Origin: Amoebophrya sp. A120
Lineage: Eukaryota; Protista; Dinoflagellata
Direction: 5' to 3'
Assembly: GCA_905178155.1 (NCBI GenBank)
Contig: CAJINV010000002.1
Coordinates: forward strand, 11,076,634 to 11,140,633
DNA: 64,000 nt
Numbering within the stretch: position 1 is the stretch's first letter; each line of letters opens with the position of its first letter. The notes beneath the pieces are model-generated. The model worked only from the letters and a program-made list of their open reading frames with translations. It was not told where the DNA came from and made no database searches. This document shows, piece by piece, positions 10,701 through 57,100 of the stretch. The position numbers were made by a program, and so were the translations under genes.

Positions 10701-12316
10701 CACCTAGGAGGTGAATGGGGCTACAGCGACCCTACATGTCAGAAAAAATCGCGCTCGTTTCCATCGGGTTTGGCGGGTGGTGGCCTAGGTAGACGCCGCC
10801 ACGGGGCAGACGAATGGCATGAGTACGACGATGCGGGTAGGAGTGTGAATCACCTCCCCACCCTTTTGAATCACCTCCCCACGGATCACCTCCCCAAGCG
10901 TATCACCTCCCCACCTGCTCCCCCGTATCACCTACTGTCATGCTTGGCATGCGTCATAGGGTCCATTAAAGGGCGTTTTCCCGTACTATCTGCGCATGAC
11001 AGGTTTTTGCTGTAATGCCAGACAAATTTGTAATGCTGTTCCTCCAAAAAAGTTACACCTACAATATTTTTTTCTCGGATACCTAGCGCCGTGGCTCTTG
11101 AAGAACCCTGAAAGGCTGGAATACATGCAGGAAACACGGTATCGAATGCAAAAATGTCTGGGTCTGGAAGAATGCAACTTGTGATGCTGCATTTGGATTC
11201 CAAAAAAATCTGTATTGCATGAGCAGCAAAGGGAATGCGATTTTTGCTACGCGGAAAGGGCGTTTGTCATGCGGAATAGGCATCGAGATGCCCTCAAGCT
11301 CAAAACAGCTGTGATGCTAGGGCATGCATCACAGACATCATGGCTCATGCAGAACGTGCATCACAAGTCTCAGAATCTTCCAGAGCCAGATGACATATTT
11401 GCAATTCATGCACGGAAAAGCGGAGCCATACCGCATCCCGGAGGGCGAAGAAGCTACGCGGCCGAAGAAGATGAAATGCAAGAAGCAGAGAAAAGATTTG
11501 CAGACGAGGAAGAAAATTTTTCGTCTCTATGAGACTGCACAGCAAAATCCGCTCTCCCCCTTTCATTTGTCATGCAAATCAATAAATACGGCCAAATCCC
11601 GCTGCTGCCGTCCCCTCAGCCTCAGGACACTTTTTGCATGGCGGATTCCGGAAAGAGCGGGGGCCAAAGCAGTACTTCCTACACCCGCCCGACCTTTCAA
11701 TGAGAACGCCTTGGAGTTGTGCACTATCATAAAAATCATCATATTTCCACCATAGCCTCCCACCTCGCACCGCAGTCGTCGACCACGTCGTCCCTGGCAA
11801 CACGAAGATGAACGATCCTGCGGAGATGATAGAAGAAGGCGAGCACTTCTATCTAACAACTCCGGAGGTGCCCGTGCCGCCACGACGCCGCGCCGGAACG
11901 GGAGTCATGGTGCCACCCGCGGGCCACCAATCGAGGACGGGGTACCCAGTCTACACCAAAGCCCAGAAAACGATACTACAGAAGCACTTTCTGAATCTGC
12001 TGAACAAGGTGGCGGCAGCACAGGAAAGGGAAACCGAGCGGTGATATTGCCTAAGCTTAGTGATTCATTGCATCCGAACGACACGACGCACTCACGAAAA
12101 AAGAAACGCAAAGAAATTGTTCATGCTTATGCTTTCTTTTCAAATATACAACGCGATTCTCCAACCATACAAAATGCCTTGCAAGTGAAGCTCCGGCGAC
12201 GGTGTCGACGGCCACCCGTCGCGCGCGAAGCAAAAAAACTTTTGTCGCTGGAACAGGCAAGCGGGTGTCTTCGGAGACCACTAGCCGGTCGTTTCAGAAT
12301 CTTATCTCAATTTTGA
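7727..12316 (+). CDS. Secreted/low-complexity protein, paralog of the downstream TSP1 protein; multi-exon, possibly degenerate; 3' end uncertain
   Basis: Shares RRVIRRE, the 'QRSTS..SAAREE..LVSRS.AGRQ' and 'KKQSRF..LYHLDSKRRLQNASRA..SPAAL' modules, C-V-(H/Y)-D and WGY-x-DP with the 12489-22682 gene. Frames join after removing 11140-11415 and 11528-11759; introns near 9030-9550, 9613-9990 and 10737-11085 are not resolved. Confidence 0.55.
10849..10913 (+). repeat. Four copies of ATCACCTCCCCA
   Basis: Directly visible with short variable spacers. Confidence 0.85.
11140..11410 (+). mobile_element. Introner, family 1 (TIR TATCRARTGYAAAAATGTCTGGGTCTGGAAG), TSD CACGG
   Basis: CACGG at 11135-11139 and 11411-11415; TIR and interior homologous (reverse complement) to 20478-20739; removing 276 nt keeps the frame. 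Confidence 0.85.
11528..11754. mobile_element. Probable introner, degenerate TSD GTCTC/GCCTC
   Basis: TATG...CATA ends, IR TATGAGACTGCACAGC/GTTGTGCACTATCATA and an internal TTGTCATGC; removing 232 nt opens a stop-free frame to 12316. Confidence 0.55.
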
Positions 12317-12488
12317 TGATGTCAACTTGATTTTATCCTGCGATCCTAGAAGGTTGCGCACCTTAGATCCACCTGAACCCTCAGTTCTTTCGTGCCGAAA
12401 CACAAACATAACTGTCTTTCCGCAGTATCGCGTGCGCCGCATGAGCATTCGTCAGCCTGTCTGTGTGAAAATGACAGAATGAAAGAAG

Positions 12489-15400
12489 ATGCGGTTGTTT
12501 TTCAAAACAGCAGGACCGGGCTCCGTCCCTCTGTTTTGCCTTCTCGTCCAATTGTACAGCCACTGGCGTTTTTCTGCTTTCCAGCGGTCTTGCCTTTCTG
12601 CTACTTCAATTCCCTTCGTGATAGGGGCGCGACGCGTCATCCGGCGCGAAACTAAAGACGCGGACACCTCTGGCTCTGCTGCGCGCGAGGATCGAGGTCC
12701 TATTTATTCCGGCACGAACAACAGTTCCTCGGCCTCTACTACAACGGCGCAGGACCCGCAGCAAGCCACTCCCAGTGTAGCATCAAAAACGCCTGACAAG
12801 AATGCCACAGCGCTGCACACCACTCGCGACAGGCACACAGAAATTGCCGCAGGTCGTGTAGTGACCGATCTTCCAACGGTTGCGAACACTCCCACTTCTT
12901 CTTCGACGCCAAAAGCGCTGCACGAAGGCAACGTAACCGGAGAGGCAGTAAAGCTGGTTGACTCCCCCGGTAGTTTACTTCCGCGCAACTTCAGCACGGG
13001 TGAGTCTCTGTTTCTCGCCGACGGAGACGTCGATTATGTGCAGCCGCCGCAAGAGGATTCACAATCAACCGCAGCAAAAGGACCGGGGCCGCTGGTAGCT
13101 GAGGTCCGCGGCGAAGAGCCGGGGGCAGACCAGACACCACGACCACACGAACCAGGGGCAAACGCACGACCGAGTCGTCGTAATATTACGGGACCCAACA
13201 GCAACAAGATGCTGCGAGTGGAAGCTGGCGCTGGAGGTGGTGAGGGGAATGGGAGGGCGATAGAAGCTTCGATAGCTTCTAGTTCCGACGACCATTATAG
13301 TGTAAAACAGCAAGACGAAGATCGTACAGACCCTGTGCCTCAAACTGGTGCAGAAGGCGCTAGTATGTAGTGAGGTCACCGAACGGTTCTAACCGGGGAG
13401 TTTTTTTGCCATCTCCCCTGAAAAACGACCGGCAGTTTTCAAGCGGGCGGGAGTGTTTTTTGACGAAAAAGATTTTCAATTATCAAGCGGCCGGAGCTTT
13501 GCCAACAAACAAGCCCGGTCGAAAACTATCGATTCCCGCTTGATAAAACGACGCAGGGGAGCCGGCAAAAGGGGCGCCCTTCTGAGGCGCCCGCCGCCTT
13601 GGTTTCTGGCGATTTGGGGCGCCCAAAAAGGGGCGCGCAAAAAACGCGCCCAAAATCAGAACAGCGAAACAGCATGGCACGGCCGCGATTTCGGAGCATT
13701 TTGGGCGGTCGCGAAAGCGGCCGCCTTTTCGCCGGTTTTAGAGCCTGGGAAGCTTTACAAAAAGCGCCGGCGTGAAAAATAAAAACGCGAAAAATAAAAA
13801 GCGCCCCAGACGCGCAAAGCCAATCCGCATGCTATGGGCCCGGTTTTTCTTCGCTTTTTGGGCGCCCCCCGTGGCACCCGGATCGGCCCCATAGCATCGG
13901 GGCTGGCTTTCGGAAGGGAATTTTGGAAATGCGCCAAAATTTGCGACGTTTCCCAAGTGGGCGCCATACCGTGCGGCATAACGTTACGCACGGCGGTATG
14001 GCGAGCCCATAAAAAGCAAAGCCGCGGCCAAGGCGGCGGTCGGCAAAAAAACGCCCACGACCTCACTACCCCCGCCCCGGCGGCTATATTTGGTAGGGGA
14101 ACGCGACAAGAAGGTGGAATAGCACCTCCATCGGCGGTTCGTCCCCCAGGAGCGGAGCAAAATTTGACAATCACGACGCACATACCGGAACAGCAGCAAC
14201 TCGCGAGCGACAGCACTGTCCCCAAGGCTGCTAGGAGCCGAGACCGCGAAGCTGCGAAAGCACCTAGTAGTCGCAACACCAAGAAGCAATTGCAATCTTC
14301 TTCGCTGCAAACCCGCTCTGCAACGGCCGTGACGAGGAACGAAAGGCACAACCCCATCATCCCGATCCAGCACTTGCATTCAAAAAGACGCCTCCGGCAT
14401 GCTAGCACGACAAAGAGCCCTGCAGCTTTAGCTCTGCGCGAAGAAGATAACAATGTCAAAATCCAGCTGCGCGGAGCTATTGCTAGCGCTTATCGCGAGA
14501 AAAAACTGTCTCAGTCTCAAACCTCTGCAGACTTTAGAATACAGCATGCCACACAAAACCCCTGATGTGCCAAACAGCAAGAGAAAACACATACGAAAAG
14601 CACCTGTCTTGCATGTCAGGCATGACAAAAAAGCGCCTCAAGGAGTGTCCGCATCTCGAGTTGAGACTGAACAGTTTTTTCTTGCGATAGCGCTCAGAGG
14701 CCGACTAGTAGTTCTTTCGGAACTGCTGGGGCGGACGACGGCCGCAGCGCCGCCAAAGAGGAGGCCGCCGCTCTGGTCAGCAGAAGCGGCGCCGGGCGCC
14801 AGCACCAGGAAAGCGCCAGCACGACCGATACCGCCACTTCAGATATCCCCGGACACGACGAGGACAAATCACGACACCCCCAAATTCGATCTGCGAGGAA
14901 AGCAGGTCCAGGTCGCGTCAGGAACGACCTAGAAAAACCTCGCATGAGTGCTGACGTTTCCAGGATAGATTCGAAACGGACACCACCATTATCGTCCGCG
15001 GCGCCCACAACAGAAGTTGAAGCACCCGAGACAAGACGCAGAGACGGAGCAACGGCTGCACCGACGGACGCAAAGAAGCAGTCTCGATTTGTTTCGCCGC
15101 CAGCCGCGTTTAGCACGACATCGTCCACGGGGAAAGAGAGTCACAACTTCCGCCCCGCTCCCCTTCACCAATTGTATTCGAAAAGGCGCCGCCAGAATGC
15201 AAGCCGGGCAATGAGCCCGGCCGCTTTGGGCGGAGATGAAGAAGACGGTCGAGGCTCGGTCTCGTCTGTGCCTGCAGCGCATGACTCTCTATCTTCTAAA
15301 CACAAACAACTCCACGACCATTTTCTTTCATTTCAACAGGAGCAAGAAGAAGAACCCCATAATTTTCAGAATTCTGCGGAGCGAGTAGGAGTCGGAATAC

Positions 15401-18400
15401 AACCGGAAGACCTCTATCTCTATGATACGAACACGACCTCCTCGGCCGCGGCTTCTGTGCGCGATATTTTTCAACAAGAGCGGCTCCATCGCGGCTTTCA
15501 GAGTTCAGCGGGTGCGGAGCAAACACAACCACAGGGCCCACCGTCTGGAAGCGCGGACCCGGACGCAGGCGGCGCAGGCAGCTACCTTCAAACGACAAAA
15601 AACTACAACGCTGAGTGCGAAACAGATAATCTAGAATCCCATCCGCAACCCACGTACGGGAACTGCGTTTACGATCCATGCCACCGCGTTGACGGGTGGG
15701 GCGAATGGAACGAGTGGGCCCCGGCAAGCTGGGCCGCGGAGAGCGGACCGAATATCCGCAGTGAAAATTGCTGCGACTTCCCCGCCCGCCCGTAGTCAAG
15801 ACGGAAAGAACTTTTCTAGACAAATCCAGGAGTTTTGGAATGACATACGCATGACAACTTTGGCTACGCAGCGTGGTCGTGAGTAGCTAGCGCAGCCGCA
15901 TCATACATAGACTGTTTTAAATTGATTCGAGCATCAAAATTTTTGAAACGCGACTAGTGACTGGGAATGGCTCTTAGGGGAATCCGTATCATGAGACAAA
16001 TTTTTACAGGCGACGTGCAGATTTGCATGACAAATCTGGGGTGGGGACGTTTCTACACAGGACACCGAATGCGTGTGGGTTAGGCCAAGTCGAGAGACAG
16101 CGGAAAAAGGTCAGAAACGGGGATAGAGACTGCGAGAACGCCTGGGGAAGCTGCGGCGGGGACGGGTGGGGCAACCACCGACATAACTTGCACTATAATG
16201 ATATGAAAGCGTCAGGCCCTTGGAAATTTGTAAAAGTTGAAAAAAAATGCGCCGTCATGTATAGAATGCAACAAATACAAAGTGTCTGTGCTCTGTTAGA
16301 CTGGAGCCAACCGAGGCAGCTTGTAAGCCTGCCCAGAGTCATAGGCTCCGGTGTAGGCGAGCGCGACAAAAAAAAGCCCTCCCTCCGCTCTAGATTCCTG
16401 GACGGCGTGGCGATTGGCCCTCCGTGTCTGGGAAATCTGTCGTACGCTGCTTCAGAGAATTTGGATTCACCAATGGGGTTCAGTTTTATGCCTCAAAAAT
16501 ATGTAATTGTAACGCGTAGCGCTTAAGCTTATATCAGTGTGCATGAACAAGCAAGGAAGTTGCACTGTTCGGCGTCGGGCTGGCTGCCCGTCGCCGACCA
16601 CCTTCGGCTGGGTCTTTGTCCTCTATCGTTAGTCTTCGCCTCGCCTTGGCTTGCCTCGGCTTGGCGTTTTTTCGTCTCTTCGGTTCTCGGAGGTTGGATA
16701 TTTGACGGAGGGGAGAAAGCGAGGCGTACTTGTACGCCTCAGGCCTTCGCTCTGGTTCTGCTTCGCATTCCGCGTTGTCGTTTCCGGCGCTGCCGATACT
16801 TAGTGTGGACCAATACAGTGTGCGGCAAGGAAAGAGCTCCGGCGGTCCCGTTGCCACTGAGCTGCCCTAGCCATGGGCAGGTCAGAACAGGAGGTGTGCG
16901 TTTTTCCGTGTGCACGTAGCTCGGCCCCACCGAGCGCCAGGGCATTGTCCTGACAGGGGGTGATGTCCCGGTGGGAAGGAAGTTGCTGCGCATAGAGATG
17001 TTGGATTCTTCAACTTCCTTCCAGGTTGTTCCCTTGCGGTGGTACCTACGCACATGTCGCTGACGCGCTTACGGCTCTCGTGGGCGCCACTGGCCGGGGA
17101 GCGAGGGAAGGATCCAGTTGGCCACGGTGTGGCCGCTGTGGTTCTTCACACACGCCGTTAAGGGCACATGTCCGGCGTTATCTCGGCCGTTGGCTGAGGG
17201 GGCTTTCGGCAACACGCAACGGCAAACAGCGCAGCCCGTTCTGCGGCCTGCCGCTCTGCGTGCCGCGGGTGTCCCATGATTCTGTTCTCCGATGTGAGTT
17301 GCAACGCAGCAGAGGAGCAGCAGTAGTGGGCCACTCGCCTGTCAGCGATCGATGAAGCCGCGAGGGCGGGGGGGCCGCGTTTCACGCTGCCACAAATAGC
17401 GGCCGCACTCAAGGCGGAGCGACGCTGCTGGCTTCCTAGGGCATTGATTGCCCGCGAGGCCCTTGGCAATTGCCAAGGGCCGAGCCCAGTCTAACTTTGG
17501 CGTTAGCCGGTATAAGATCACACTACCGCGATCATAAGCCGGAGGGAGCGAACCATACTCCAACTACAAAAAACGCGAGACATACGGCCACAGCACAGGG
17601 CACCCCAGCGCCCACCTTTTCGCCCCTGCCGCACGCTCGCAGGGGCGGCCGTCCGGTGGGTTGACAAATACGAAGACACCCGCTTGCCCAATGGGTACGG
17701 GGACAAAATAGCGCAGTACAGATGGCCGGCACCCACACCACACTCATCGCCCCGCACCCTGGACGCGCAACCCCACAGCCCCGCAGGTGGCGGCGGCCTG
17801 CATACAGTGGGTCCCATGCCGGGGACGCCAGTTGATAGAGGTGCTCCGCCGTCCGCGTGTATGACTTCGATGAAGCCGCCTGCGGGGAAGAATTGGGGTG
17901 GGGTCGTGCGATCGCGACGTCGTTGCATTGCTGCGGCCTTTCGACGGGGGTCGTGACCTTCTCGTTGCAGCTTTTGCGCTGACGTTTGGTTGTGTCACTA
18001 CGACGTAGCCAGACCTGTCGCGCAGGAGTATCAGGAGTGCCGACTCGGAAGGAGAGCTGAGTAGCGTTGCCTACCGGCATTGCGACTCCGTCCTTCCTCG
18101 GCGTCGGTCCGCCGGTGTTGATTGCCAAGGCAGTCAGCACGGTCGAAGGGGTTCAGCGGTTGGTGTGGGGGCGAGAGCTGTCCGTCTTCGCGCAGTCTTG
18201 ATTGTTTCTTCTCCTGTTTCGAACTTCTCCGTTGTTGTTCGACTCATCCAGCGTGCCTGGGAGCGCTTTGCTGATGGATCTGATGAAACAAAAAGCCTGC
18301 GCGCTTCGGGCTGAAGCATCGCGTCGCAGCGTTTTGCGCTGTGTCACAATCCCGTGGAACTTTTCCGGGCAGACATTCACTAGACAAACTTGGCAGCAAA

Positions 18401-21400
18401 CTCCCATAGCTCCACCCGGCTCCCTCACTTAGCTGCAGGGATTACGTGCCGGCACTGTCCCACGATCTCGCTTCCTAGCTTCGCAGCACCGCGCGCGCGG
18501 CCCTCTGTCCCCGATAGCTCCGGGCCGCCCCGGCATTTCCTCTCTCACCTTTGGGGAACGTGTCAGTCCGGCGGTCCATGTCGTGTCCCATGGCCTGGCC
18601 CACCTTTTTTATGTCCCCCCGCGACGTGGCTCTGGGGGGTTTGGGAGCCTGGCTTCCGTGGCTTGCTTCCTGTAGCTCGCTGCGCCGGCCGAGTTTTCTT
18701 TTTGTTGGCAGTGTGGTCGCCGCATGGCATCTTGCGACCCAGTCTGGGGCGCGCTCTGTTCCATTACTTGCGCTTTTATTCAGATGCGCACGCCTTCATC
18801 CTATGAGTGAATTGCGCAGAGAAAGCGAAACCACAACTGCATAAAGTACTGATTCAAATTGTTCAATTTTGCCGAATTCCAAGCTGGCGCGCCAATAAAC
18901 AAGTACAGAGTTTGCACATACCCACCCTGCGATTGCGAGGTGGGCAGTTGGAACGAGTGGGGCCGGTGCGATGCAGCCTGCGGCATAGGAACGCAGACGC
19001 GGAAGCGAACGCAGACAAAACAGCCCACCTCCGAGGGCCTAAGTTGCGCAGAGACTAAGGACGTCAATGGCGTCGCATACAACATATTGACGCAAAAGCG
19101 CGCGTTATCCGAAAAAAACCGTAACCGCCCCAGATTTGTCATGAAAAGTTGCCTGTTGTGCTCAGGGTGCGTGGTCATGGTGTTTCTCATGTGGGTGTCC
19201 ACTAAAGGGCCTGCGGCGCAGCTGGGAGGGAGCGGGTGTCCATTACATGATGACGATGGTGATGATGCGGGTTGCTATGAGAGCGACGAGGCATTCGATT
19301 CCCTAAACGGTGTTTGGGAATCTGTCGCGCACTGATTATCCAGACAGCAGAGAAGCGGAATTGTAGATGCATCTGGAGTAGTTACGAACGACTACGCTGC
19401 ACAGCCAGACTTGTTGTGCGTGAGTCCCACAACTTCATCCGGCTTTGCTTTACAGGATTTTTTTCCATCTTGAATTCAGGGCGGGGGCGTTTTTACTGGG
19501 GATGCGTGTGCCAGATCTGCGAGAGTGGAGAGTGGAAGTGCGAACCAGATGAGCAAAAGTGCTCAAAAACATGCTGCTCACTTCTTGACTCGAAGAGGAA
19601 CACCAACCAGTACGACGACAACCGAAGTTGCCAGACGTATGCAAAGACCGAAACTAGCGGTAAATGCAAGTGGGGCTACGGCGACCCTGACGGCACCAGC
19701 ACATTAACAGATACGACTGAGACATGTGCCGACGCGAAGTACTACACGACCGCACTATCGTCCAATACGGATTCCGTGAAACAGCAACACTGCAGCAGCA
19801 AATGCACCGACGGAACCTCCGGCACCTGTAACTGTGCCAAAATTGCGATCTGCCACGAAAAATGTCAAGACGCAAATGAAGGCGCTCCGTCGGGCGGGTT
19901 TTGTTTCGACAATTCCAGTCCATCCGCCGGTTGGTATTACCCGTCGAACAAAGCCAGCGACGATGACGAATGCGACAGCCCGATTTGTGGCAGGATCGGG
20001 GAAACAACTACAGCAAATAACGTGGAAAATGATTGTTCCAAGAACTGCTGCAGTGCCACGGCCCAGTGCAGCAGCACGGAGGCGCCAGGCGGCAATCAGC
20101 ACTGTCGGAACCTAAAGGACCCCGCGAACCAATCCCTAGACCTAGGCAAGGCCTACAACCGCGACAACGAGGCTAAATTTTGCAAACTACAAAACTGTGA
20201 CACATCCAGCGAGCCCGACCAGAGCACGTGCTGCAAGCTACGGGAGTGTCAATGCACCAGCCCTGGGGGTAAGACGCCGGCCACCGGGGCAGCTTGTCTA
20301 ATCTGTGCAAAAGTATCGCACTCGTAGTAAGTAATTCTTGGACGCATGCGGTACAAATCTAGCTCCTAAGTAGCAAAGCCAGCGTTTTGGACAAATTTCT
20401 TTTCCAATGCTGAGCCGATTTGTCATGCCATTTAAGTACTAGAGTTGTGCGATAGTACTTTTGCAATGCATATTGTCTATCAAGTGTAAAAATGTCTGGG
20501 TCTGGAAGATTGCCAGGTTTGTCATACACATTTTGCATGACTCCTGATGTCTGTGATGCATGCCCGAGCGTCACAGATTTTGTAAGGGCTTCCTGATGCC
20601 TATACCGCATGACAAATGCTCTTTCCGTTGAGCAAAACTTGGACTCTCTTTGCTGCTCATGCAGTACAGATTTTTTTACAATCCAAAATCAGCATGACAA
20701 GTTGCAATCTTCCAGACCCAGACATTTTTACATTTGATATTGTCCGGCGGAAAGCAATGAATTCTGCACCGAGGTGGACTATGGTTATCACCTCGTCCAT
20801 ATCAAGTGCAAAAATGTCTCGGTCTAGAAGAATGCAAGTTTGTCATGCTTGTCTCACATGACTCTTAAATTTGTCACGCACATTACCCAAGACCCCCATT
20901 TTATTTTCTGTCGTGCAGAAACGCAGTTTGTCATGCAGAATAGGCAACACCAAGAAGCTCAGAAACTTGTCATGCTGAGCCAGCACTTGTGGCCTCCTCA
21001 TGATACGCCACCCAGCATCACAAGTGTCCAGACCCAGACATATTTGCATTTCATAGTCCACGACGCAGCTGCGGGAACGCAAGAAGCAGTGCAGAACCAG
21101 TGCACGTGCGAGGGAGGCGATCCGGCGGTGGGGCCGGATACAGACAACCCCGAAGATACGTGCTTTGACGTATCCTGAGTTGCAAAAACGTCCTCCCCAC
21201 ACCATAATTCATCAAGAGCGGTGGAAATTTGATCACAACAAGATTTCGCCGTTGCGCAGGGCAGCCTGCCTGCCTTGGAGCCGCAGTGTACTACTACGCT
21301 TGGTCAGTTCGTGCAGCCACGTCGCAAATCGACGATCGCGATTGCCTTATGACAAAGTCCTACCGACAGCGTTTCTAATGGAACTCCGTATCATGAGAAT

Positions 21401-22682
21401 CACCCTGCTGGGGACTAGGCAAATATGGAGAGGGGACGTTTTTACCCAGGATGCGATCATGGCTACATTCAATGCAAAAGTACAGGCTGCTTATCGGGTG
21501 CGAATATGTCTGGGTCTGGAACTGTGCGAAGTTGTGATGCGCATTTTACATCACCCAAAAATCTGTCATGCATAGATTAGAAGCCAAAGGTTGCACAATT
21601 CTTGCCACCGAAAGAAGGGCTTTATTATGCGGATTACGCATTAAGTGGCATTCTCGAAGCTTGTGATGCTACAGCGTGTATGCCGAACCTTCTTGATCAT
21701 GCGAAAGCTGCATCACAAACCTCTGCATCCTTCCAGACCCACACGCATCTGCATTTGATACTGCTACGAGAACCACGAGTTCGAACCGATCGAACGCATC
21801 TTATGCAAAGAAAAGACTGCTACAGGGTGAGATTGTGTTGCAAAACATGCAAGACAGACGATCTCTGTCATGCGCAAAAGACATGCGTGTCTCGTTTCGT
21901 GTGCGTTTTGCCTTATGATCTCTGCATTAGCGTCATGCGAGGCAAATTTGTGATGTTGAATTCACTACAGGTGTGTAACTGTAGCACTTTTTTCCTTGCA
22001 TGCATCTGCCTGTGGGTCGACTATCCTGCGTAAAAACGTCCGCACCCCATAGTCAAGAAGATGGGAAAGCTGCTAAACAAAGCAACAAGCTGAAGCTTTG
22101 GCGGTTGCGCATGACAAGTCTGGGTGTGCAATGTAGTCTCGTTTACCTGCTCATGCAGAAGTATGACATATCCAAGTACTTAGAATATTGTACTGATTCG
22201 GGTATCACAGATTCCAAAACACCACTAGAATATGCTTCTCATGGCGCTCCACATGAGAAGCAATTGCATTTTAAGCATGCAAATTTGCATGACAACTATG
22301 CGTAGTGAGCGTTGGCGTGAAGTAAGTTGGAATTCGTGGCCGGGAGATGATGGCGATGGCGCTTCGGTGCCCGCCTGACCTGCCTTCCCTGCGTGACAGC
22401 CATCTGCGGCCGTTTGCGAAGGGGGAGGCGAAGTGTGCTGCAATTCCTTTAGCATGACAAGTACGAGGTGGGGACGTTTTTACTCAGGGTACTGACCCCC
22501 CGGAAATCATGGAGGCAAACGTCACAAACGACTCCAATGAGACCAACGAAACGGACAAAACAGCAGCACCAGCCTCCTCCGGGCTACTCGCAACCATCCT
22601 GGTCGGGATTGTTCTTTTCTTCGTGCTTTTTTGTTGCGGAAGCGAGGCCGAGGAACTCATTGAAGTTGAGGAAGCGTTATAG
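12489..22682 (+). CDS. TSP1-repeat / Cys-rich type I membrane protein (adhesin-like), ~1298 aa, 14 exons: 12489-13363, 14097-14490, 14695-15752, 16070-16193, 16545-16550, 18904-19077, 19332-19370, 19506-20298, 20745-20799, 21061-21170, 21459-21491, 21766-21801, 22008-22021, 22497-22682
   Basis: The hand-spliced exons sum to 3897 nt in one frame. Contains TSP1 motifs WGEWNEW..CGLGQVERQRK and WNEWGRCDAACGIGTQTRKR, Cys-rich repeats (CQCTSPGG..TGAACPAESNEFC..GYHL; NQCTCEGGDPAVG), a TM segment GLLATILVGIVLFFVLFCC and an acidic tail SEAEELIEVEEAL*. Confidence 0.75.
13364..14091. mobile_element. Introner (~730 bp) in the TSP1 gene, degenerate TSD GCTAG/GGTAG
   Basis: IR GTAGTGAGGTC/GACCTCACTAC plus TTTTTTTGCC/GGCAAAAAAA; removing 13364-14096 (733 nt) joins frames; right end approximate. 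Confidence 0.6.
14491..14689. mobile_element. Introner, TSD GCGCT
   Basis: ~30-bp TIR TATCGCGAGAAAAAACTGTCTCAGTCTCAA / TTGAGACTGAACAGTTTTTTCTTGCGATA; GCGCT at 14486-14490 and 14690-14694; removing 204 nt restores sequence collinear with the paralog. Confidence 0.9.
15753..16064. mobile_element. Introner, family 2 (TIR ~TATCCTGMGTAAAAACGTCCCCACC), TSD CCGAA
   Basis: CCGAA at 15748-15752 and 16065-16069; removing 317 nt rebuilds the TSP1 motif SGPNACGLGQVERQRK. Confidence 0.85.
16194..16539. mobile_element. Degenerate introner, TSD TGCAC/TGCAT
   Basis: Weak IR (TGATATGAAAGC/GCTTATATCA); removing 351 nt keeps the frame. Confidence 0.55.
16551..18903 (+). other. Large GC-AG intron (2353 nt) containing a GC-rich insertion
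   Basis: GCAAGG...AAACAAG ends; splicing gives HEQYRVCTYPPC, a plausible TSP1 C-terminus. Confidence 0.55.
17400..18150 (-). pseudogene. Possible decayed APE-type endonuclease of a non-LTR retrotransposon
   Basis: Frame-hopping minus-strand fragments AINTGG, LSSPSESAL..SGYVVV, GAGHLYC..SPYPLGKRVSSYL and LPPAYDRGSVI loosely follow the APE motif order (N, E, GDFN, SDH). Confidence 0.3.
19078..19338. mobile_element. Degenerate introner (~254-nt intron; boundaries +/-7 nt)
   Basis: Removing 254 nt restores the frame (TCGCA/GCGCA); weak IR and an internal TTGTCATGA. Confidence 0.5.
19371..19505. mobile_element. Short in-frame introner (135 nt), family-2-like ends, DR GATGC
   Basis: GATGC at 19366-19370 and 19501-19505; IR GCATCTGGAGTAGTTACG / CGTTTTTACTGGGGATGC; no stop inside. 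Confidence 0.55.
20299..20472. mobile_element. Introner A of a tandem pair, TSD TTGTC
   Basis: IR TGCAAAAGTATCGCAC / GTGCGATAGTACTTTTGCA; TTGTC at 20294-20298 and 20473-20477. Confidence 0.8.
20478..20739 (-). mobile_element. Introner B of a tandem pair, family 1, inverted relative to the 11140 copy, TSD TTGTC
   Basis: ~35-bp near-perfect TIR TATCAAGTGTAAAAATGTCTGGGTCTGGAAGATTGC; TTGTC at 20473-20477 and 20740-20744. Confidence 0.92.
20800..21055 (+). mobile_element. Introner, family 1, TSD GTCCA
   Basis: GTCCA at 20795-20799 and 21056-21060; removing 261 nt gives GYHLVHDAAAG..NQCTC. Confidence 0.9.
21171..21453. mobile_element. Introner, family 2, decayed TSD
   Basis: IR TATCCTGAGT..AAAAACGTCC / GGACGTTTTTACCCAGGATG; element+5 nt = 288, in frame. 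Confidence 0.8.
21492..21760 (+). mobile_element. Introner, family 1, TSD CTGCT
   Basis: CTGCT at 21487-21491 and 21761-21765; TIR TATCGGGTGCGAATATGTCTGGGTCTGGAA. Confidence 0.88.
21802..22002. mobile_element. Introner, TSD CATCT
   Basis: CATCT at 21797-21801 and 22003-22007; IR TATGCAAAGAAAAGACTGCTACAG / CTGTAGCACTTTTTTCCTTGCATG. Confidence 0.85.
22022..22491. mobile_element. Introner, family 2, TSD TCGAC/CTGAC
   Basis: IR TATCCTGCGTAAAAACGTCCGCACC / GGTGGGGACGTTTTTACTCAGGGTA; removing 475 nt leads into the TM exon in frame. Confidence 0.85.
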
Positions 22683-25600: not shown

Positions 25601-25822
25601 ATTGCCGATGCAGGAGATCGAGATACTATGTCTGGTGCTGAGGATATTAATGTATGACGAGGAGCCACAAGCCAAACTACAGGACCAAAAAACTGGTCTA
25701 TCATGCTGGGGGTTTGGTTACTTATTCTTCGGCTTTGCGTCAGCCGTCAGGACCTGCTACTGCAACTGTTTTGCATTTTGTAATTGTATAGATACGATAC
25801 GATGCGACGAGTTTTTTTTTAC

Positions 25823-28800
25823 ATGGAATATGACATGAGCGACGAAATTACTAAGCTGAAAAATGTCTGCAGCTAAAAAAATCAAAATTTTTGCGTCCTA
25901 CATTTTCGGGCACCTTCTTGTGTGTTTATTTTTTTTCACAATGAAACGAAAGCAAGGAAATGGGCAGGCCAGGTATTCCGGCAAGGCCTCGGCGGACGAA
26001 GCAGAGGAGACAGCTCAGCCACCGGGGGACTCTGTGCTTCGGTATCGGTGGATGTCGTCCACCCGGGTTCGCAGTTGTAGTTCTTCAAGTTCCCAAACTC
26101 CCTCCTGATTCCTGACGATTTACCTAGTGCGTGTCTTGTTTGGGAATGGGCTGAATCTGCTGAAGCAGAGGCTCGCTTTTGGTTCAAACCTCGCGGCCTC
26201 GGAGGAGGTCGACTCGGGGATGAGCTCAAGTTGCAGGGTTTCTGCCTGCAAATTGAGCTCGATTCAGCTCGGGGTAGTGCGAAAATGGCGGCCAAAATTT
26301 GTCGCCCCGGAGGTCCGCGACTCGGGAGGGCTCCGAAGAGGTGTCCGAGGACACCTCATCTGGAGGCCAATTTCGGAGGTGCAGAGTTTTTTGGCGGCGC
26401 AGACAAACACGAGCTATCTGCCCCACTTTCCCCCCCTCGCGCCAAAAAACTCTGCACCTCCACTTGGCGACCTCGTTGCCGAGGTGCAGAGTTTTTTCGC
26501 GGAGCCACGTTTTGCATCAAAAATCTGAACCCTCACAGCACGGCATTCTGCTGATCCAGGGGCTCAGATTTGTGACCTGGCCCGGAGAGCGAGCCCAAGA
26601 CGGGTCATAAACGAAGGCCATTTGTAATGCGAAGCGCGCATTACAAATTGCTTAACGCCGGACCGTCCGTTACCAAAAACGATTTCAAAACGAATTCAAA
26701 CTGAATTCAAAATGCCAGCGTTTTGGACTTCTTGAGCCGCTTAGATTCTTCGTCGCAAGAACGTGGCGGGCAATAGTCCGGTTTCCGTGCCCACTTCATG
26801 GCGGGGCTCGGGTGCGCCAGTGTGGTGGGCCGCGTGTCTGAGGGGCGCAACACAAGAACTCGACTGCAGTTCCACTGTCGGAGGCAAATTAGATATGACG
26901 CGGACCCTAGCAAAATGGTGCGGTAGACGGAACAAGGGGTGGGCGGCTTCAAAGGGTCGAGCGGCAGCTTCGCCCGCTGTGGGCGCACTGCGTGGACGCT
27001 GCCGGACGTGCCGTCCTGCGCCTTGGGCCAGACGCCCCAATGGAGCCGTCAGAGATGCGACGTCTCCGGCGCCTCCTGGGGCGCGGGCTGATGGCAGGAG
27101 GAAAGTGCGCGCGTGCAATTTTATTTCCGGAGCTATAATTGTGCCCTGTCCGGTTCCTTGTAAGCCGGCGGCAAAGAGCGCCCCGCGATTGGGCGCGGTG
27201 CGATGCTCTGTGGTCCGGGTTGTAGAGCGCCGGCCCTTTCGTGGGCCGGCCCTCGGGGCAGAGCGCTTTCCTGTTCTCAGGACAGGGCAGCTGGGTCCAG
27301 CTCTTACCACGTGCAACGCAAGGCCGACGCGTTGACCTGTGGCATGGGGCGGGCCCAGCGTTCAATTTCAAATTGAATCCGCGAATTCAAAGCGAATCCG
27401 CGAATTCAAACTGAATCCGCGAATTCAAACTGAATCCGTGGGCGCCTCTTCAATTTCAAACCAAATCCGTTGCTTCCTGGAGCGGCCACACCAATTTCGA
27501 ACGGAATCCGAATTCCATCCGAATCCCATCCGATTTCCATCCGAATCCCATTTCCCTAATAAGGAATTGGACTCGGATGAAAAAAGGATGGAATTCGGAT
27601 TCCGTTTGAAATTGGTCGGACCAATTTGGGGTCCAATCCGTGACCTTCTTCTGCATCAGACCAGAACGTCTGGGCTATGTTGTAGATTTTTGGCGCGCGC
27701 TGCCGCGCGCACCGCTATCCGGGTGTTCTTCAATACCTTTTTCTTTCATTCCGCGTTGCCTTGTCGTTGGTGTGGCGAGTTGTGTTTCTTGGCGCTGCAT
27801 CGCAGCCTCTGAGGAGCAGGGTGGGCCGTCACAGGTGACGCCGGGTCTTGTCATACAGCCCTTCTGTGTTGGTTGAATCTGCTTCACCTGCGCTTCTGCC
27901 TCTTGGGCGTTTGAACTATAAAGGCGATGCTCATGGGCGAACGCCGGTGGGGAGCCGGCGTCTCCCATGGAGCGCTTTCTGCTCAGATTGCAAGGCTTGG
28001 CCGTGAAGCACGTGGGCACTGCAAGTGTGGGGCCAACGGAGCTGGGGCTTCGTTCATTCGAGAACTTTTATCGTGTGCGGATTACCAACCCGGAGCAGCT
28101 CTTTCGTGGTGGTGCTGCATCCTGAGCACGCTTGCTCCTTGTTCTATTTCCTTTTTTCGCCCACACCATAAATCCTTGCCGCGCTGTGCATCCTTGCTCA
28201 GTCGAGACAGAATGTCGCGCGTCTGTCGGACTTATCTTCCTGCCGCGCCCGTCGTGGTGGCATCTGGGGCCATAATGAGAGGGCGTATGGTCGGAGCCCG
28301 ATGCGCGATTGCGTGCGGCCTTTGTGCTTCTGGGTGAGGACCTACAATCCATGCCCGAAGCGTTTCACGATGCTTTCCCAATTCTCTTTTTTCGAAAACT
28401 GTGGCATTTTGAATTCAGTTTGAATTCAGTTTGAAATCGAATTACACGACGGCACGGCCAGAGTTAAAAATTGCCACTTTCGGGGGGAGGGGCTCTGCGC
28501 CCTAGCACCTCTCTGAGGCTGGCGTCATGTTGTTATCTTAGGTGCGAAACTTACCCGAAAAATGGCAGTCGGAGGCCCCTACCTGTTGCCGCATTTCCGT
28601 GTGGAGGTAGCAAAACAAGCTCGTGCGGGACCTTCCAGCAAATGACGCAGGAATGGAGCGCAACACCTCGGCCAAGTTCCCCAGCACGGAGTCCGCAGCG
28701 CTCGCAAGCGGGCTGCAGTCCGGGCGAGAAGAGAAGAACACGAACTGCACTACCAAAAATTTTGATTTTTTTAGCTGCAGACAAATTTCAAGTTAGTAGA

Positions 28801-31312: not shown

Positions 31313-33326
31313 AACAATATAGTATTGTGACAGATGCAGATCCTCATTCTCCTCATCAAGATGATAATTTATGATGAATATCATGAGCACCGGTATCTAT
31401 ACGTCACTCTGTTGTCCTTGTCCCTACGCCTACTCGTCTGACAAAGAGAAAAACGTCTTTTGGTCTTAGCAAATTGCAAATTGTAAATAACCTACTTATT
31501 TCAAACTGAATCAGGTCAAGTTTCAGTCACATCAATCAATGATCTGGTAGATGCGTAAAACAGCATCGACAGTCTTGCTCTTCAATCGATTGCTCATAAG
31601 AGAAATATGAAAAAACACAGCATAGGAGTGGTAGCGTGACGTGGATGTGATCACTCCCGGCAGTGATGGCGTTGTGGATCAGGAGACTGCCTCTTCTCGA
31701 CAGGTGGAGATGCGAAGCCAGTGCACACAGCTTCAGGAGGCAGAAAAGATCATTCTATTCTTTATTTTGTAAAGCGTTCGCTCTCCCTCGGTGAATGAAC
31801 GAAAACGCAGCAAATGGCCGGCATTGATCGAAATAGGTCGTGTAGCTGCTGGATTAAAGCTCGCACAAAGCAAATGCAAGGGTGGCACTGAGATCATGAT
31901 TGATCACGATGGTGGTGAAAGCCAAGGTCTTCTTCTTCATACTTCACTTAGCGCCCCTTTTCACTTTCTCTATTTTCGGCAGGGCATTCTATTCCTATTG
32001 ATTTGTTGTGCCGGTGGAACGTATATGTGTGTGTAGTGTGAGTGTCTTTCTAGTTGGTCCTTGAGAAACAGCCGTTCATTTTCATCACACCACGGCTCCT
32101 GTCTTTGTTGATCAGATTCTCCTGCAAATAAACAGTATAGAAACATCACAAAAATGGAAACCCCGCCGACCGGAACGACCCGTGTCGCCACAGACTATCG
32201 ACCGAAAAAGGAATGTATGTATTCAAGCGAATGAAGAGCGCGTCATTGCTTTGCATTTCCAATTCAATACTCCAGCTACAAGTACAACTTGTACGTATTT
32301 TTCTGTAAAGATCAGAGAGAATAATATGCATTTGCTTTGTTGGGTACCAAACAAAGTGTATGTGATTTTTCGTATCCTTATCCTGATGTATGTCATTTTT
32401 TTTTGTGTCGATACCAGCACCACTGCCCCTTCCCGGACCACATTGAATGCAAACACGACGAAACATGATGCAGATGCTGGAGAACCAGATTCATCTAGCA
32501 CGCTTTCGAAATCAGGAACTTGCAGCAGTTTGGCAGCAGCGGATAAGATCCACCGATGTGACCAGAGACAACCAGAAATCCACTTCTGGCATTCTTTATC
32601 CCATCGAAATTCAATTTTTGCACGCTCATTGCTGGTATTCATCTTCACCACCACAGAGCTGAAACACTGAGCAGCTCGTCTTCTATTTGCATGACGCAGC
32701 TGATATGCTTTAAGAAGGGCTCCGAGACAGAGGAGGCCGTGGGAAAGCAGCTGAAGAAACAGATGAATATCGATTTAGTCAGCACTGTGACGCTGGTACT
32801 AGGTAATTCAGCCGCTTTTTGTAAAACTAGCAGTAATTATGAAATTGAAAATGAAACGAAGTTGCAAGACCATCAGACACGATTCTTTCCAGCGTTTGTG
32901 CAGGCATCGCTATGCTTTACCTTTGCATTTACACCCTTTCAGCAAAATAGTACCTATGTATCTTCCCATGGTTGTCAGTGTTTCTATGTGAAGCATTTCG
33001 AAAGCATGCGTATGCCATCCGCGTTTTGCAATTTTTTACTTCGTTTTTGTTTTCTGTTGCGAACCACCAGCGATAGCTGTAATTTTGAATTTTGTTGGGA
33101 TTTTCCGGAACGGATACGAAAATGGACAACTACTCCTCGCCCTTTTCATCTACTTCCTCATTTGAAGAGCATCCCTAGCGACAGAATCGACCAGAAGAAA
33201 AAGAATGCGGCTTCTGCATGACGAACACATCACGAACTCTATTGAGACTGGACCGTGAGAGATGTTTGCGTAGATAACAAGGCTAACGAGTTAAACAGAG
33301 CAATAAATCAGGAGGGGGAGAAGTAG

Positions 33327-43103: not shown

Positions 43104-46100
43104 ATGTGTCCCTTTCCATCGAGCACCACAACCCGTTCTATCAGTGTCGCCAAAGCAGCTTCGTCTTTGTTGCAAACGCACAGCCAACGCCAGGTGATAC
43201 TGAATACCACCGCCGCATGGGTTCGCCGTTGGGTTATCGGGCAGAAGTTGTGTCCCTTTGCACGACCCTTGGTGGACCGGGGTGTGCTGCGCTTACGGCT
43301 GGTTCCTGACCTCCCGTCTTTGCTGCCAGTGTTCCACCAGGAGGTGCTGTTGCTGCTGGAGCGGAATAACGCTTGTAAAAAGAACACCATGTTGACGGAG
43401 GTCCCAGCACCAACCAGCATGGGGACGCGTTATGGATCTGAAGCATTGTGTTCTAGGTCTGCCTCTCAAGAAGAGAAGCGGAACGCGACTAGCCCACAAG
43501 TGCAAGACGAGGTGGATCGAGGTGAACAAGGTTCCTGCCCGGAGAGGGGGAAGCCGAAGCAGGCGGAGAAACGCACCATTGGCGAGGACACCACGACCAA
43601 AACGACTTTAGGACAGGACCAAAACGACCGAGCCTGTACAACTTCTAGCTGGACTACAGTTGTCACTCCTGAGCCTCCCGATGGTGCATACACTGCATCG
43701 GATGAAGAAGAGACGTGTAGTGCTGTAGCTCCACCACTTGGAGGCGGTACTTCCGCAGCTGTAACTTCCCCGCCGTTCCCATCGCTCAGTAAACGTGTTC
43801 AACATGATCCGGAGTCGACACTGCTTATCCTTCCGCCAGGCACCGAATTGGATGACTATTCGAAATTTACGGCAAAAAGTTGGGAGCTGTGCCACTACCT
43901 CGCAACCGAGCTCAAACGCCACGAAGATTTATCTTAGCCAAAAGCCCGACTGCTGCAGCGATTTATTTCGTTCTTTTTTATGACACTTGTATGGACGAGG
44001 ACACACGAAGCGATGTTTGCAAAAGTTTTCGCAGATGTAAAAAAGGAAGCAGCAGTAATTTTGGGGCTGAAAACTTTAAGGGTTACGGCGAAGTGCGATG
44101 TCTTTCGGGCTCTGTGTTATTCAGCTTTGTCTTCCAATGGGGCGCCCCAGTATCCCTATTTTCGAAAAGCAGCAAAAATAGACTTGGAGGAACTGGTAGC
44201 AAATAAGCTAAAAGCGATTCTGAATATTCCAAAAAAGGCCCCCTCCACAGTAGTTTTCGAGGCGTCCGGGCTTCTCAGGCCGCACTTGATGATATTGATC
44301 GAAAATGTGATGCTATTTTTTCGTGGAAAATCACAAAAGGAATGGGAAATAGAGGGAGACACTCTTGACAGCAGACATGAAAAATACGGGAAGATGAACA
44401 GCATGACAAATCCCGTAGCCTTTGACCCGATCAAAGAAAAGCGGTCTACCATCATGCGAACAATTTCGAGCGACCGCATGCATGATATTCATGAAGCAGT
44501 ATGCAAATATCCGATGAAGATTACGAAACGCCCATGGAATGGCGTTCGTTTGTATTGCGAGACAATGGACGACATCGGAAAAAAGTATGGCTATGACAGC
44601 CTCAGTCTTTTGAAAAACGAACAAGAAAAGACAAGAGCAAGGCTCATGATTGCAAAAGACCATGAGAAAGAGACTCGGGAGACCTTAAAAAGTCAGAGTG
44701 GGCTCATAATTTGCACAGACGGGTCGGCGAACAAGGAGGGGCAGCTAGGAGGGGGAGGCGGTGCGACGTGGTGGTGGAGTCAAGAGGTACAGCTAAACAC
44801 GCCAATCAGAACGGTCAATCCTATGCGTTGTAGTACGTGTGCAATAAAGACACCACTTAGAGATATGAAAGTTGATTCTTTTGACACAGAGCGCTACGCT
44901 CTCAATACGCAGCTGAACCGCACAGCAAAAAAAGTTGTTGAGTTTGAAGTAAGCGAATTTATAGAAAAAGTTGAGATCTACCTGGACCCGAATTCTGTGC
45001 TCGAAGGCCTGCAGAATTTCAATGAGAAATCGAATGTCGTGCTTTTCTTCATCGTGCAACAGATGGAGCTCCTCAGAAATGTGCTCATGCAAAGAAAGTG
45101 CAAATACGGCTTGCCACCAGAAAGACCGTCCATCAATCCAGAAAGAGAAGTAATCTTTCGCGCAAAATGGACGCCGGGCCATGCTGATATGTATTTTAAT
45201 GACACTGCAGATTATTTAGCCGGTGCAGCGCTGCGCCGCTACCAAACAGCGGTGGAACAGGGCCTGGATATGATAGTTTATATGAAAGAAATAACGCCTA
45301 CGATCTTGCGTCGCCTGATCACAAATCGGGTGAAATACTGGAAAGGGCCAAAGCAACAAAAAGCGACAGCCGCGCCGCATTTAGTAGAAAGGGGCAGGCA
45401 CGTCGGGCCCTTTCGCCCAAAAAACTCTGTCTTCCCCTCGCGCCTACTAGAAATGTACTACTTCTACTTATGGAGTGGGATAGTGCCACACAACGTAATG
45501 GGGGCAGGTGTAGGGGAGCACGGAAAAAATGAACAGGGGGAGCCTACGTACACACAGAAGTGCTTTTTCTGCAATACAAAAAACAAAACACATGCTACAC
45601 ATCTATTGCTATCGTGTCAGGTATTTAAGGCAGAGCGGAAGCATTTTTTCGAGTGCGAAGCAATAGAGGACACGCTAGAGAACGAGAGAAAGGTACTGGA
45701 CAAGCCTCGTCTTGTGTGCAAATTTCTGCTGGAGGCCAACAAACGCAAGCAGATCTTCAAGGATTTTGCGAAGGAGGAGATCGAAAAGAACGTGGAGAAG
45801 GTGGCAGAGTTGATGACGCCGCCGGAAAAAATCAAGCTCCACATGCCGAATGCCTTCGAACAGACGGGGGTTATTTGTAGCGTGATTCGTAATGAGATCT
45901 AAACTTCAATACTAATACTTTTGTGAACTTATTTCTCAATGTAAATACTAATTAGCAAAAAGCACACTAGTCGAGCTTTCTTTTTGTGTATGAATGAGTA
46001 AAAGAGTGCGCGCAAGAGTTACAAAAACAATTTTGATGAGCTTCATTTGTCTATCTCAGAAAGCAGAAAGGGAAAGCAAAAATAACGCGAAGCAGTCTGA

Positions 46101-54101: not shown

Positions 54102-57100
54102 ATGACTGCCATCGGGAACAGGAGCGAGGTGGACAAGCAAAAGGATAAAAGTTCCTGCTGCCGTTGTTTACGCGCATCGAGGAAGAACAAATGGAGCACG
54201 GTCTACGACCTGGTCGCGTGGCGGGTGGGCCACGCGGAGGAGGGCGTTTTCGTGCCCGTTCCGTACCCGAAAGACCGGAAAGCTTTTACAGCGTACACAA
54301 CGTACCGGCTCTACCGTTCCTGGTTTCGACTGGTGTTCGGAATTTTGGTCCTCGAGTCTTTCCTGGAAACGCCATCCTGGTGCATGAGCCGGCAGGCCGA
54401 GACGAAGGCGGCTCTGATCCGGGAAGACTTTTTCACCGGGCCGTTCCTGAACGAAGAGCGAATCTGCTCTGAGAACGCGTATTTCCTGAAAATTAACCAT
54501 CCGCATCCAATTTGTCATGCAAAATATGTAGCAAAAGGAAAAGCAAAGCCACAGTCTGTGACTGTGTTTGTCATGCAAAAAGTGGATGGTAATGGTTAAT
54601 TTTCAGGGAATAGCGCGGCCACGCCAAACACCAACTACCTGTTGTCGGGCGTGGTCTTGGTGAACCCGATCTGGAGTAGTTTGTACGAGATCTTTATCCA
54701 CAGAAAAAAACCCATCCACATCCAATTTGTCATGCAAAACATACATAAAATTCTGTGTTTGTCATGCAAAAAATGGTTGTGGAAGTGGATGGGTTTTTTT
54801 TCTCTGGATAATCTTTGTCGTCCTGTTCATCCTGCGAAAGGCCTTTTGGCGCTGCAAGTACCTCAGTTTCTTCTTCGACATTGAAGTTGAAAACGAGGAG
54901 AAACCCACAGCGTTTCTGCTCACAACTGGGAACCGAAACGGAAACGACGCCGGCACGAGGGCAAGCGACCATGCGTTCGAGAAACTGAAACGGGGTGAGG
55001 TGCCTTTTGGTGAAAACGAATGTAATTCAGCTTGTCGTGATGTTGTTGAAGAAACATCAACAACTATCGCAAAATCCGGAAATAAACTGAAAGCCTCGGT
55101 GCCGGAGGACATTTATTGTTCGAAGGACGCAACGCGCATGGCCGGCGACGTATTGAAAGGGAGTGGGTGTAAGATGACTATCGAGCAAGACAAAGACTTT
55201 CCTGGTGGTCCAAGCGTTGGTCTAGGTCTTCCAGTAGTTGCTCCTCACGTATCTGTTGCCGCACCTCCACCAGCCCCAACAGGAGGGCCAGCGACGCTGT
55301 TGCCACCACCAGCGGCAGCTGCGGGTCCAGGCTCGTCTATCAGTGAATCGTCTTCCAGCAAGCTTGTCGCGCGAAAAAAACACACCCACCGCCACAATTT
55401 TTTGGCCAAGCACCCACTGCGCTATGAAACGCAACCAGGGAAGATGAAAAAGGGGATGAAGGAGCAGCTAGTAGAGGACTTCGATCATAGAGGAGGCACG
55501 GAAGCTGCAGGAACTGGCCAAAAGCCCAGCGGCGCCGCAGCAAAAGCGTCTACTTTTCTCGCCAAAAACAGCCGCATGATGATGTCTTTGCTTTTTCCTG
55601 CCACCACGCCCCCGGCTGGCCCCATGCGAAACGGAAACTACAGCACTACCGGCCTGCTGAATGCTGCTGGATCAACAACATCTGAGCGCACTATCTACCA
55701 GAGGCTCCACGAGCACGAGTGCAAGCTGCACGGTGTGGAGTTGCTTTGCAGTTTGTACCTCTTCGTGGAGGCCGTGATTTTTCTGCTGGAAATCGGGTAC
55801 GGACGATCTTTGATTCTGTACCCCCGGCTACACCTCTTGGCACGAGCGGGGATAATGCTCAGTTCCCCGACCCTCGCCCGCCTCCTTCCGGCTGTGTGGC
55901 TCAGCATCAAGGCGAACACCAAAACCATGATCGTGATGATCACCTTCTGTTTCGTGTTTTCCTGGGTACATTTGGTCCTAATCACCGCTACTCACTCGAG
56001 CCAAGTCGACGACAAGGGGCGCGTCTATTTCGGTCGGGAAGAGAACAACATTTTCAGCGGGGCAACCGCGTACTGGAACTCCGGTACCACGGGGAACTAC
56101 CCCGGGGAGATGCTGCGCGAGTTTACGGCCTACCGCTGGACGGGCTGGCTTCACACCAGCGCGCAGGTCTTTCTCTGCACCATCATCATGCAGTTCTTGC
56201 TAGCCACAGTGATGAATGAGTACAGCGATATTATGAAGAAGCAGCACGAGCAATACACCAAGGGCCGCCGGAAAGCGCTCGAAGCCGCCTACTGGGAACT
56301 GCTAGCAGGGAGCAGCTGTGGTGCGTTGATGAACGATCAGCACGATCATTCAGCAGGTGGCGACGGAAGAACAAGAAGGAACAGCTGTGGTCCTAACACA
56401 ACGCATTCTCTACCTCCTGCTGCAGAGCAAGAACAGCACGCGACACAATTTTCCGTGAGGGAAAACCGTAACAACCCGGACCGCCTTTTAGGTGCGGGCT
56501 TGGCCGCTGCTCTCCTTTTCAACGACGACGAAGACCGGCAGCAGCTCGGCCAAAGGACTAACGTGAATCAGCAACGAGATATGGAGCAAACGGAACAAGA
56601 AGACAACGAGGACGACAACATTGAGATTTTCGGCGCCGCGTCCGGAGCACACCAGATCCCGCCATCATCGTCGAGATGCTCCGAGCAAGGCGGAGCACTT
56701 GCAGCTGACCGCTTTGGAGGTCAAATGCAGAGTCACGAGCTGAACCTCCTCAACGAATCTGTGGCAGCACCTAGCGAGGTGCCTGCCGACGTTGTGCTCC
56801 AGCCTTTTCAGTCCTTAACCGTGGGTGAGTGCCGACTTCTTTTTGCAGACAGCATCCAGCGTCATCTCATGCGGGACGTCCCAGCCACGGGCGGTCAAAG
56901 AGACGAAGACGCTGCTCCCTTGCAACCTCCAGTTGACTCAGATGTGGGGAGCACCAGAAACGGACACAAGTTGCAACTGCATTTAGATGATCATAGAACT
57001 GGAAAAGGTAAAGCAGCTAGGACAGCGACAAGCACGAGCAGACGAACTTCAAGCTCTTATCGTCGCAGTTCGACCTCCTCGGACGGTAGAAGCAACTCCT

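Follow-up and report, generated by a model that had tools for sequence, protein, structure and literature searches.

The stretch of DNA studied here (the window) comprises 64,000 nucleotides of Amoebophrya sp. A120 and holds fifteen short elements, 116-470 nt long, which we delimited by hand. They are bounded by terminal inverted repeats (TIRs) reading TAT…ATA, and they fit miniature inverted-repeat or other non-autonomous TIR transposons: short, TIR-bounded, flanked by a target-site duplication (TSD), repeated and non-coding. An earlier note on this DNA, which saw the elements as introns of mobile families with unrelated TIRs (introners), proposed that they share an internal 9-mer, TTGT[CG]ATGC, acting as a common binding site. 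The occurrence, spacing, conservation and strand of this motif were analysed in the window and in a related assembly.

Occurrence of the motif in the window

Scanning of both strands gave 25 exact copies of TTGT[CG]ATGC, compared with a mean of 1.35 and a maximum of 5 in 100 dinucleotide shuffles of the window. The earlier note had put the chance expectation at about one occurrence per 64 kb. With 19 copies, TTGTCATGC/GCATGACAA is the most frequent 9-mer of the window, the N run excepted. The 22 positions listed earlier were all real, to within 1 base, and three further exact copies were found at 21015, 21661 and 44401. The claim that the copies lie inside TIR introns holds for 24 of the 25, which fall in short TIR elements; the copy at 44401, in a long reading frame, is the single one that chance predicts and stands outside the element system. 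The copies are distributed over families A (12), B (5), C (4), D, E and F (1 each), with one in none. Thus, they are not 25 independent events, and with 12 of them in family A the window alone does not separate function from descent.

At the level of elements, 11 of the 15 contain the exact motif, two (G and B2) a one-mismatch copy, and two (B3 and H) none; element H may not belong to the system. Position 10994, where the earlier finding began, is a CTGTCATGC variant within a damaged G-type element. With the central base relaxed (TTGT-V-ATGC), the window contains 28 sites, only three of which are outside short-element DNA, and two of these three are in a 2.95-kb TIR element. The motif is absent from two GT-AG introns and from a repeated 733-nt insert of the window. 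The 30 ends have TAT in common, together with G at position 9 and usually an A-tract at positions 11-15, so that describing the TIRs as unrelated was an overstatement.

Table 1. Elements and isolated copies of the motif in the window. Signs after motif positions give the orientation; X3 and X6 are sequencing runs.
Feature	Position	Strand	TSD or flanks	Motif sites	Transcript contigs and remarks
G-type, damaged	10900..11081	.		variants at 10935, 10994, 11028	left end lost in short tandem repeats, start approximate; fits family-G consensus
A1	11140..11410	+	CACGG	11179+, 11264+, 11358-; six matrix sites	11135-11410 skipped in X3 and X6 contigs
D	11528..11731	+	flanks no longer repeat	11567+, 39 nt from end	11527-11735 skipped
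E	14491..14689	.	GCGCT	14620-	contigs join 14483 to 14688
B1	15753..16064	.	CCGAA	15849-, 16025-	covered by an unspliced contig
B2	19106..19504	.	4/5	19136+ (one mismatch)	X3 contig resumes at 19508
F	20299..20472	.	TTGTC, common with A2	20420+	
A2	20478..20739	-	TTGTC	20607-, 20692-	family A reversed
A3	20800..21055	+	GTCCA	20840+, 20928+, 20967+, 21015-	20795-21055 skipped
B3	21171..21453	.	2/5	none of at least 8 bits	21170-21457 skipped
A4	21492..21760	+	CTGCT	21532+, 21661+, 21710-	21487-21760 skipped
G	21802..22002	.	CATCT	variants at offsets 31+, 47-, 63+ (16-bp steps)	skipped together with B4
B4	22022..22491	.	3/5	22109-, 22287-, 22452-	skipped
TAC…GTA element, 2.95 kb	25849..28798	.	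GAAAT	inverted TTGTAATGC pair 26622+/26638-, 16 bp apart	TIR resembles family A
H	32196..32413	.	2/5	none	TAT ends, A-tract
Lone exact copy	44401..44409	-			inside long reading frame, outside any element
C1	54480..54612	.	4/5	54512+, 54568+	
C2	54695..54810	.	ATCTT	54727+, 54759+ (32 bp apart)	54690-54810 skipped in one X6 contig, depth 2.6

Elements F and A2 lie back to back (20294-20744) among three TTGTC copies, as if the second had used the target duplication of the first.

Sharing across families and conservation

The larger sample consisted of 141 loci of one related assembly, fetched with the family-A end word and amounting to 663 kb after overlap removal. Because of this bait family A is over-represented and the other families are by-catch. 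Window elements matched their best relatives at 58-94%. A search of the 663 kb for TAT ends accompanied by a 5-bp repeat returned 450 candidates, versus 38-62 at shifted offsets, and this excess at the true offset supports a 5-bp TSD. We retained 382 called elements (up to 600 nt, with TSD 5/5 or TIR at least 13/16), which together with the 15 window elements make 397. When motif and ends were masked, these formed 79 clusters with an E threshold of 1e-5 (126 with 1e-10, 39 with 1e-3). The relative's ends also fit the TAT/A-tract consensus, which is partly circular since the filter demanded it; when the filter was dropped, 12 of 15 strong calls still started with TAT.

TTGT.ATGC was present in 370 of the 397 elements and in 200 of the 223 outside family A (411 sites, versus 4.2 in shuffles). 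Counted by cluster, 70 of 79 representatives carry it, where 1.7 would be expected. At the central position C, G or A occurs, almost never T, and one or two A/T bases precede the motif. Dropping the A-tract filter yielded nine further TAT elements in the relative; each of them carries four to seven sites, and seven have a different TIR body. TAT families lacking the A-tract, with the motif 41-42 nt from the end, were seen at L016:2486-2792, L075:757-991 and L014:505-1608 (locus:positions); the published A120 end consensus would miss such families.

Site density in the relative was 7.4 per kb of element DNA, 0.076 per kb in long frames and 0.25 per kb elsewhere, so the motif is far rarer outside the elements. 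The 71 sites found elsewhere, in 289 kb of DNA that is neither element nor open reading frame (ORF), could mean that the elements merely sample a general genomic site, such as that of a chromatin or promoter factor. However, 42 of these 71 are accompanied by another site no more than 60 nt away, as in elements that were missed, and the window has only the three such outside sites mentioned above. We give a general site very little credence.

Nine family models (six majority sequences and three single copies) were compared. Interiors showed no similarity above shuffles in 34 of 36 pairs, and the carriers are not one recent family. Neither of the two outcomes that the earlier note named as refuting its proposal was thus observed. 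Between families, TIR positions 1-15 agree at 4-13 of 15, and positions 16-30 mostly at 1-7. Apart from an end signature and the motif, the families thus have little in common. Within six family alignments, the eight fixed motif positions reached 0.87-0.96, compared with 0.69-0.82 for the other interior columns, while the central base (0.62 in families A and B) was as variable as the background. With its fixed columns above their neighbours and its central base free, the motif looks to be under selection.

Another explanation is that the pattern is a passive relic, inherited without present function from an amplified ancestor built of a 32-bp inverted-pair unit. The TAT ends, the A-tract and the 5-bp TSD that the families have in common indicate shared descent; when types are compared, the spacers of paired sites resemble each other slightly more than shuffles do, and nearly half of the window copies belong to one family. 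Nevertheless, inheritance alone would not keep eight of nine positions at about 0.9 with neighbours at about 0.7 and interiors that cannot be aligned, and diversity exists even within family A, with a median pairwise identity of 0.67. A passive relic is improbable and, judged by the column pattern, appears already largely refuted.

Family A shows a very high summed depth in sequencing run X1, which is not a copy number. A C-5 cytosine DNA methyltransferase gene lies at L011:2625-6080, near family-A elements.

Position and spacing of the sites

The sites keep a defined distance from the element ends. Exact sites lie less than 30 nt from an end in only five of 801 cases, and 388 of the 397 elements have a position weight matrix (PWM) site 28-47 nt from an end, compared with 282 under random placement (maximum 302). 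Same-strand pairs 31-33 bp apart were found in 329 elements (random 62, maximum 79) and in all seven TIR types.

The nine family models have 39 gaps between neighbouring sites, of which 33 deviate by at most 2 from a multiple of 16. In 28 of the 39, sites keep the same orientation at multiples of 32 bp and take the opposite one at half-steps, which none of 2000 random placements equalled with the period left free between 20 and 50; the fit is maximal at a period of 31.5-32.5. On B-form DNA, 32 bp correspond to about three helical turns and 16 bp to about one and a half. In 61 of the 397 elements (F-type, e.g. 20299-20472) a motif-like score is obtained at offset 3, within the TIR itself; the next site on that strand follows at about 30 bp, and the same protein may use the A-tract as a half-site.

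Splicing and strand

Transcript evidence came from contigs of runs presumed to be RNA, none of the listed ones being registered as such; run X9, of raw RNA reads, overlapped only a family-A end and is uninformative on these genes. At least nine of the 15 window elements are skipped in these contigs (A1, D, E, A3, B3, A4, G, B4 and C2). Removal occurs mostly without GT-AG, and every single listed joint takes out the element plus five bases. Between G and B4 the contigs retain a micro-exon of about 14 nt (22007-22020).

The motif could be an RNA signal in the pre-mRNA, either a branch point or a splicing-factor site, and its carriers are indeed non-GT-AG introns. This would predict a preferred form on the transcript. 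Among 171 elements with direct strand calls, 44 had the UUGU form only, 45 its complement only, 71 both and 11 none, and the sites of the two forms numbered 170 and 163. Family B carries 87 of its 88 sites on one strand and is inserted in the two directions at 12:9. A mild excess of one form in family A (134 vs 98, p 0.02) appeared with propagated strand calls only; moreover, the core CATG is palindromic. Spacing by helical turns would make no evident sense in RNA, and B3 is skipped in spite of having no site above 6.8 bits, a single case. An RNA signal is therefore highly improbable. The lack of strand bias and the splicing of motif-less B3 favour action of the motif as a double-stranded DNA site.

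A host DNA-binding protein sitting on the lattice would likewise be blind to strand. Such a protein might mark the element for removal during transcription in place of U1 small nuclear RNA (snRNA), which, in the available parts of the study by Farhat et al. (PMC7789003), was not detected in A25 or A120. This is the main rival explanation. B3, removed without any site, speaks against it, and the two unambiguous joints (D and B3), one base before and four bases after the element, indicate that the cut follows the ends. Decay of the copies does not distinguish a host role from one in mobilisation. At TSD 5, 4 and 3 of 5, motif mismatch was 0.079, 0.079 and 0.118 (p about 0.09; low-TSD copies often have misplaced ends), while TAT mismatch stayed at 0.011-0.016; 47 of 454 copies were dropped for the clean count and 33 of 454 in the other count. 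A host marker seems rather unlikely to us.

Comparison with known systems

An 8-bp TSD is typical of hAT elements; it is 5 bp here. The third terminal base also differs, T here and G in hAT (legend of Fig. S7 in PMC1131882). The present motif is 9 bp long and recurs throughout the whole element, and no BED transposase is known here. In its layout the motif resembles the hAT subterminal repeats described in the accessible parts of the Hermes (PMC10368747) and Herves (PMC3143072) reports, which are short, occur in both orientations inside the TIRs, have fixed spacing and are asymmetric between ends. Hermes repeats are rigidly positioned relative to each other and to the TIR, and are bound by the transposase (PMC10368747). 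Subterminal motifs of the non-autonomous Emigrant elements are bound cooperatively by the pogo-like Lemi1 transposase, which may limit which elements move (PMC1636448, in the part available); the elements studied here have a similar layout, with binding predicted, and differ in their variable 5-mer TSD and in serving as introns. By analogy with Hermes, Herves and Lemi1, a transposase is a likely occupant of the lattice.

The 5-bp TSD is shared with Transib (PMC1131882) and with TDD-4 and TDD-5 of Ginger2/TDD (PMC2836005), as far as the available sections of these papers describe them. Unlike Transib/RAG, the elements end in TAT rather than CAC, have an A-tract at 11-15 and lack a heptamer-spacer-nonamer arrangement (23-bp spacer, A-rich nonamer); unlike Ginger2/TDD, they do not end in TGTNR. 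Assignment to hAT, Transib or Ginger fails these end tests.

TTGT-N-ATGCAAAT resembles the vertebrate Sox-Oct composite site, presumably by coincidence. A Harbinger/Myb subterminal palindrome, for which no paper was found, was not used.

The elements belong to a published class. In the accessible text of two studies (Farhat et al. 2021, PMC7789003; Gozashti et al. 2025, PMC12130899), A120 introners have inverted repeats of TAT, seven loose bases and at least three A, direct repeats of 3-5 nt, non-GT-AG removal and no transposase inside. In A120, about 30,000 repeated introns are grouped into 1954 families (PMC7789003), and in the portion of the Gozashti table available (32 of 58 A120 rows) all rows have superfamily 'Unknown', 24 of them as TIR DNA (PMC12130899). 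The GC content of the window is 50.7%, and 48.8% AT is reported for A120 (PMC12005148, in part).

The internal motif, its lattice and the strand result appear to be new, beyond what the accessible parts of PMC7789003 and PMC12130899 describe. The motif was not found in the text and supplement text of PMC7789003 (no TGTCATG, no CATG), whose logos in Fig. 3 and S25 could hold it, and the 9-mer is absent from the accessible content of supplement files 3 and 7 of PMC12130899. Likewise, the available portions of the preprint by Roy et al. (10.1101/2020.10.14.339549) and of the Kv genome paper (PMC12005148) contain no internal motif. Among the listed literature matches to the 9-mers, no title concerned transposons or dinoflagellates; subscription papers and theses could hold the motif.

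Interpretation

Judging from the sequences, (W)YTTGT-V-ATGC, present about three to six times per element on a 16/32-bp lattice starting 28-47 bases inside the TAT ends, is probably the binding site of one protein, most plausibly a transposase, or its partner, that would move all these non-autonomous families. Several subunits would bind the double helix in phase, at steps of three turns (32 bp) and one and a half (16 bp), and would help to pair the two ends of the element; the enzyme would then cut at TAT and insert with a 5-base stagger. Lineages losing the array would no longer be copied, so that the motif would be kept as the remainder diverged. The element ends, and not the motif, would determine splicing, and the families would be descendants or clients of one superfamily.

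Several observations weigh against a single mobilising protein. No transposase was found among 242 frames compared with Pfam (the 234 longest of 400 locus frames of at least 180 aa, plus 8 window frames), which gave host genes only. Farhat et al. reported no transposase in A120 and ruled out general mobilisation by transposase (PMC7789003, in the part available). The PWM was trained on these same elements, the lattice period was read from the data on which it was tested, and the families may share ancestry. Some similarity is seen between the interiors of B and D and between those of B and K. Two same-orientation gaps of 49 in family B violate the lattice, the orientation of the sites relative to the end differs among families, and an exact site is near both ends in only 40 of 223 non-A elements. 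Finally, 14 copies with TSD 2/5 or worse retain the motif (mismatch 0.04-0.07) and D retains a perfect site, which also speaks for the host marker discussed above.

The search for long motif-bearing elements with an ORF, suggested in the earlier note, gave no coding candidate in the 663 kb and the window, an area below 1% of the approximately 115-Mb genome. Long TIR pairs (up to 16 kb) proved to be short elements carrying inserts or pairings by chance; four of them, viewed in full, and the 2.95-kb element held no such candidate. Viral contigs scanned with A-, B- and C-type end words gave nothing. Altogether, the idea of a shared DNA site linking the families is retained in part: the motif is common to interiors that do not align, is conserved over its neighbours and behaves like a double-stranded DNA site, but the TIRs are not unrelated and half of the window copies come from one family.

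A wider proposal, which we advance only tentatively, is that all TAT-ended Amoebophrya introners form one undescribed DNA-transposon superfamily, with TAT ends, a 5-bp duplication and a phased TTGT-V-ATGC lattice. The lattice would be tiled by a multimeric protein, either an unrecognisable transposase or a domesticated host protein, which may also mark the element for U1-less splicing.

One shared phased site would reduce the families of repeated introns of A120 to one machine. If true, binding by a common transposase would argue against the published exclusion of transposase mobilisation. The motif could serve as bait for capturing the protein, with point mutants as built-in controls, and the lattice as a family-independent detector of these introns in related genomes.

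Other features of the window

The 2.95-kb TAC-ended element directly precedes an 845-aa frame. Seven of its frames gave no Pfam match, and no homologue was present among the relative's loci. It contains a nested inverted-repeat element with arms at 26652-26727 and 28392-28467 and a 7-bp flanking repeat. The GC-rich 733-nt repeated insert (13363-14095) is of a different kind; an 89% copy is present in locus L059, and the insert is apparently missing from transcript contigs. The long frame at 43950-45900 resembles, by eye, the RNase H end of a non-LTR (long terminal repeat) retrotransposon. In contigs, 43928 is joined to 47511; these two positions mark the ends of a duplicated 30-nt stretch.

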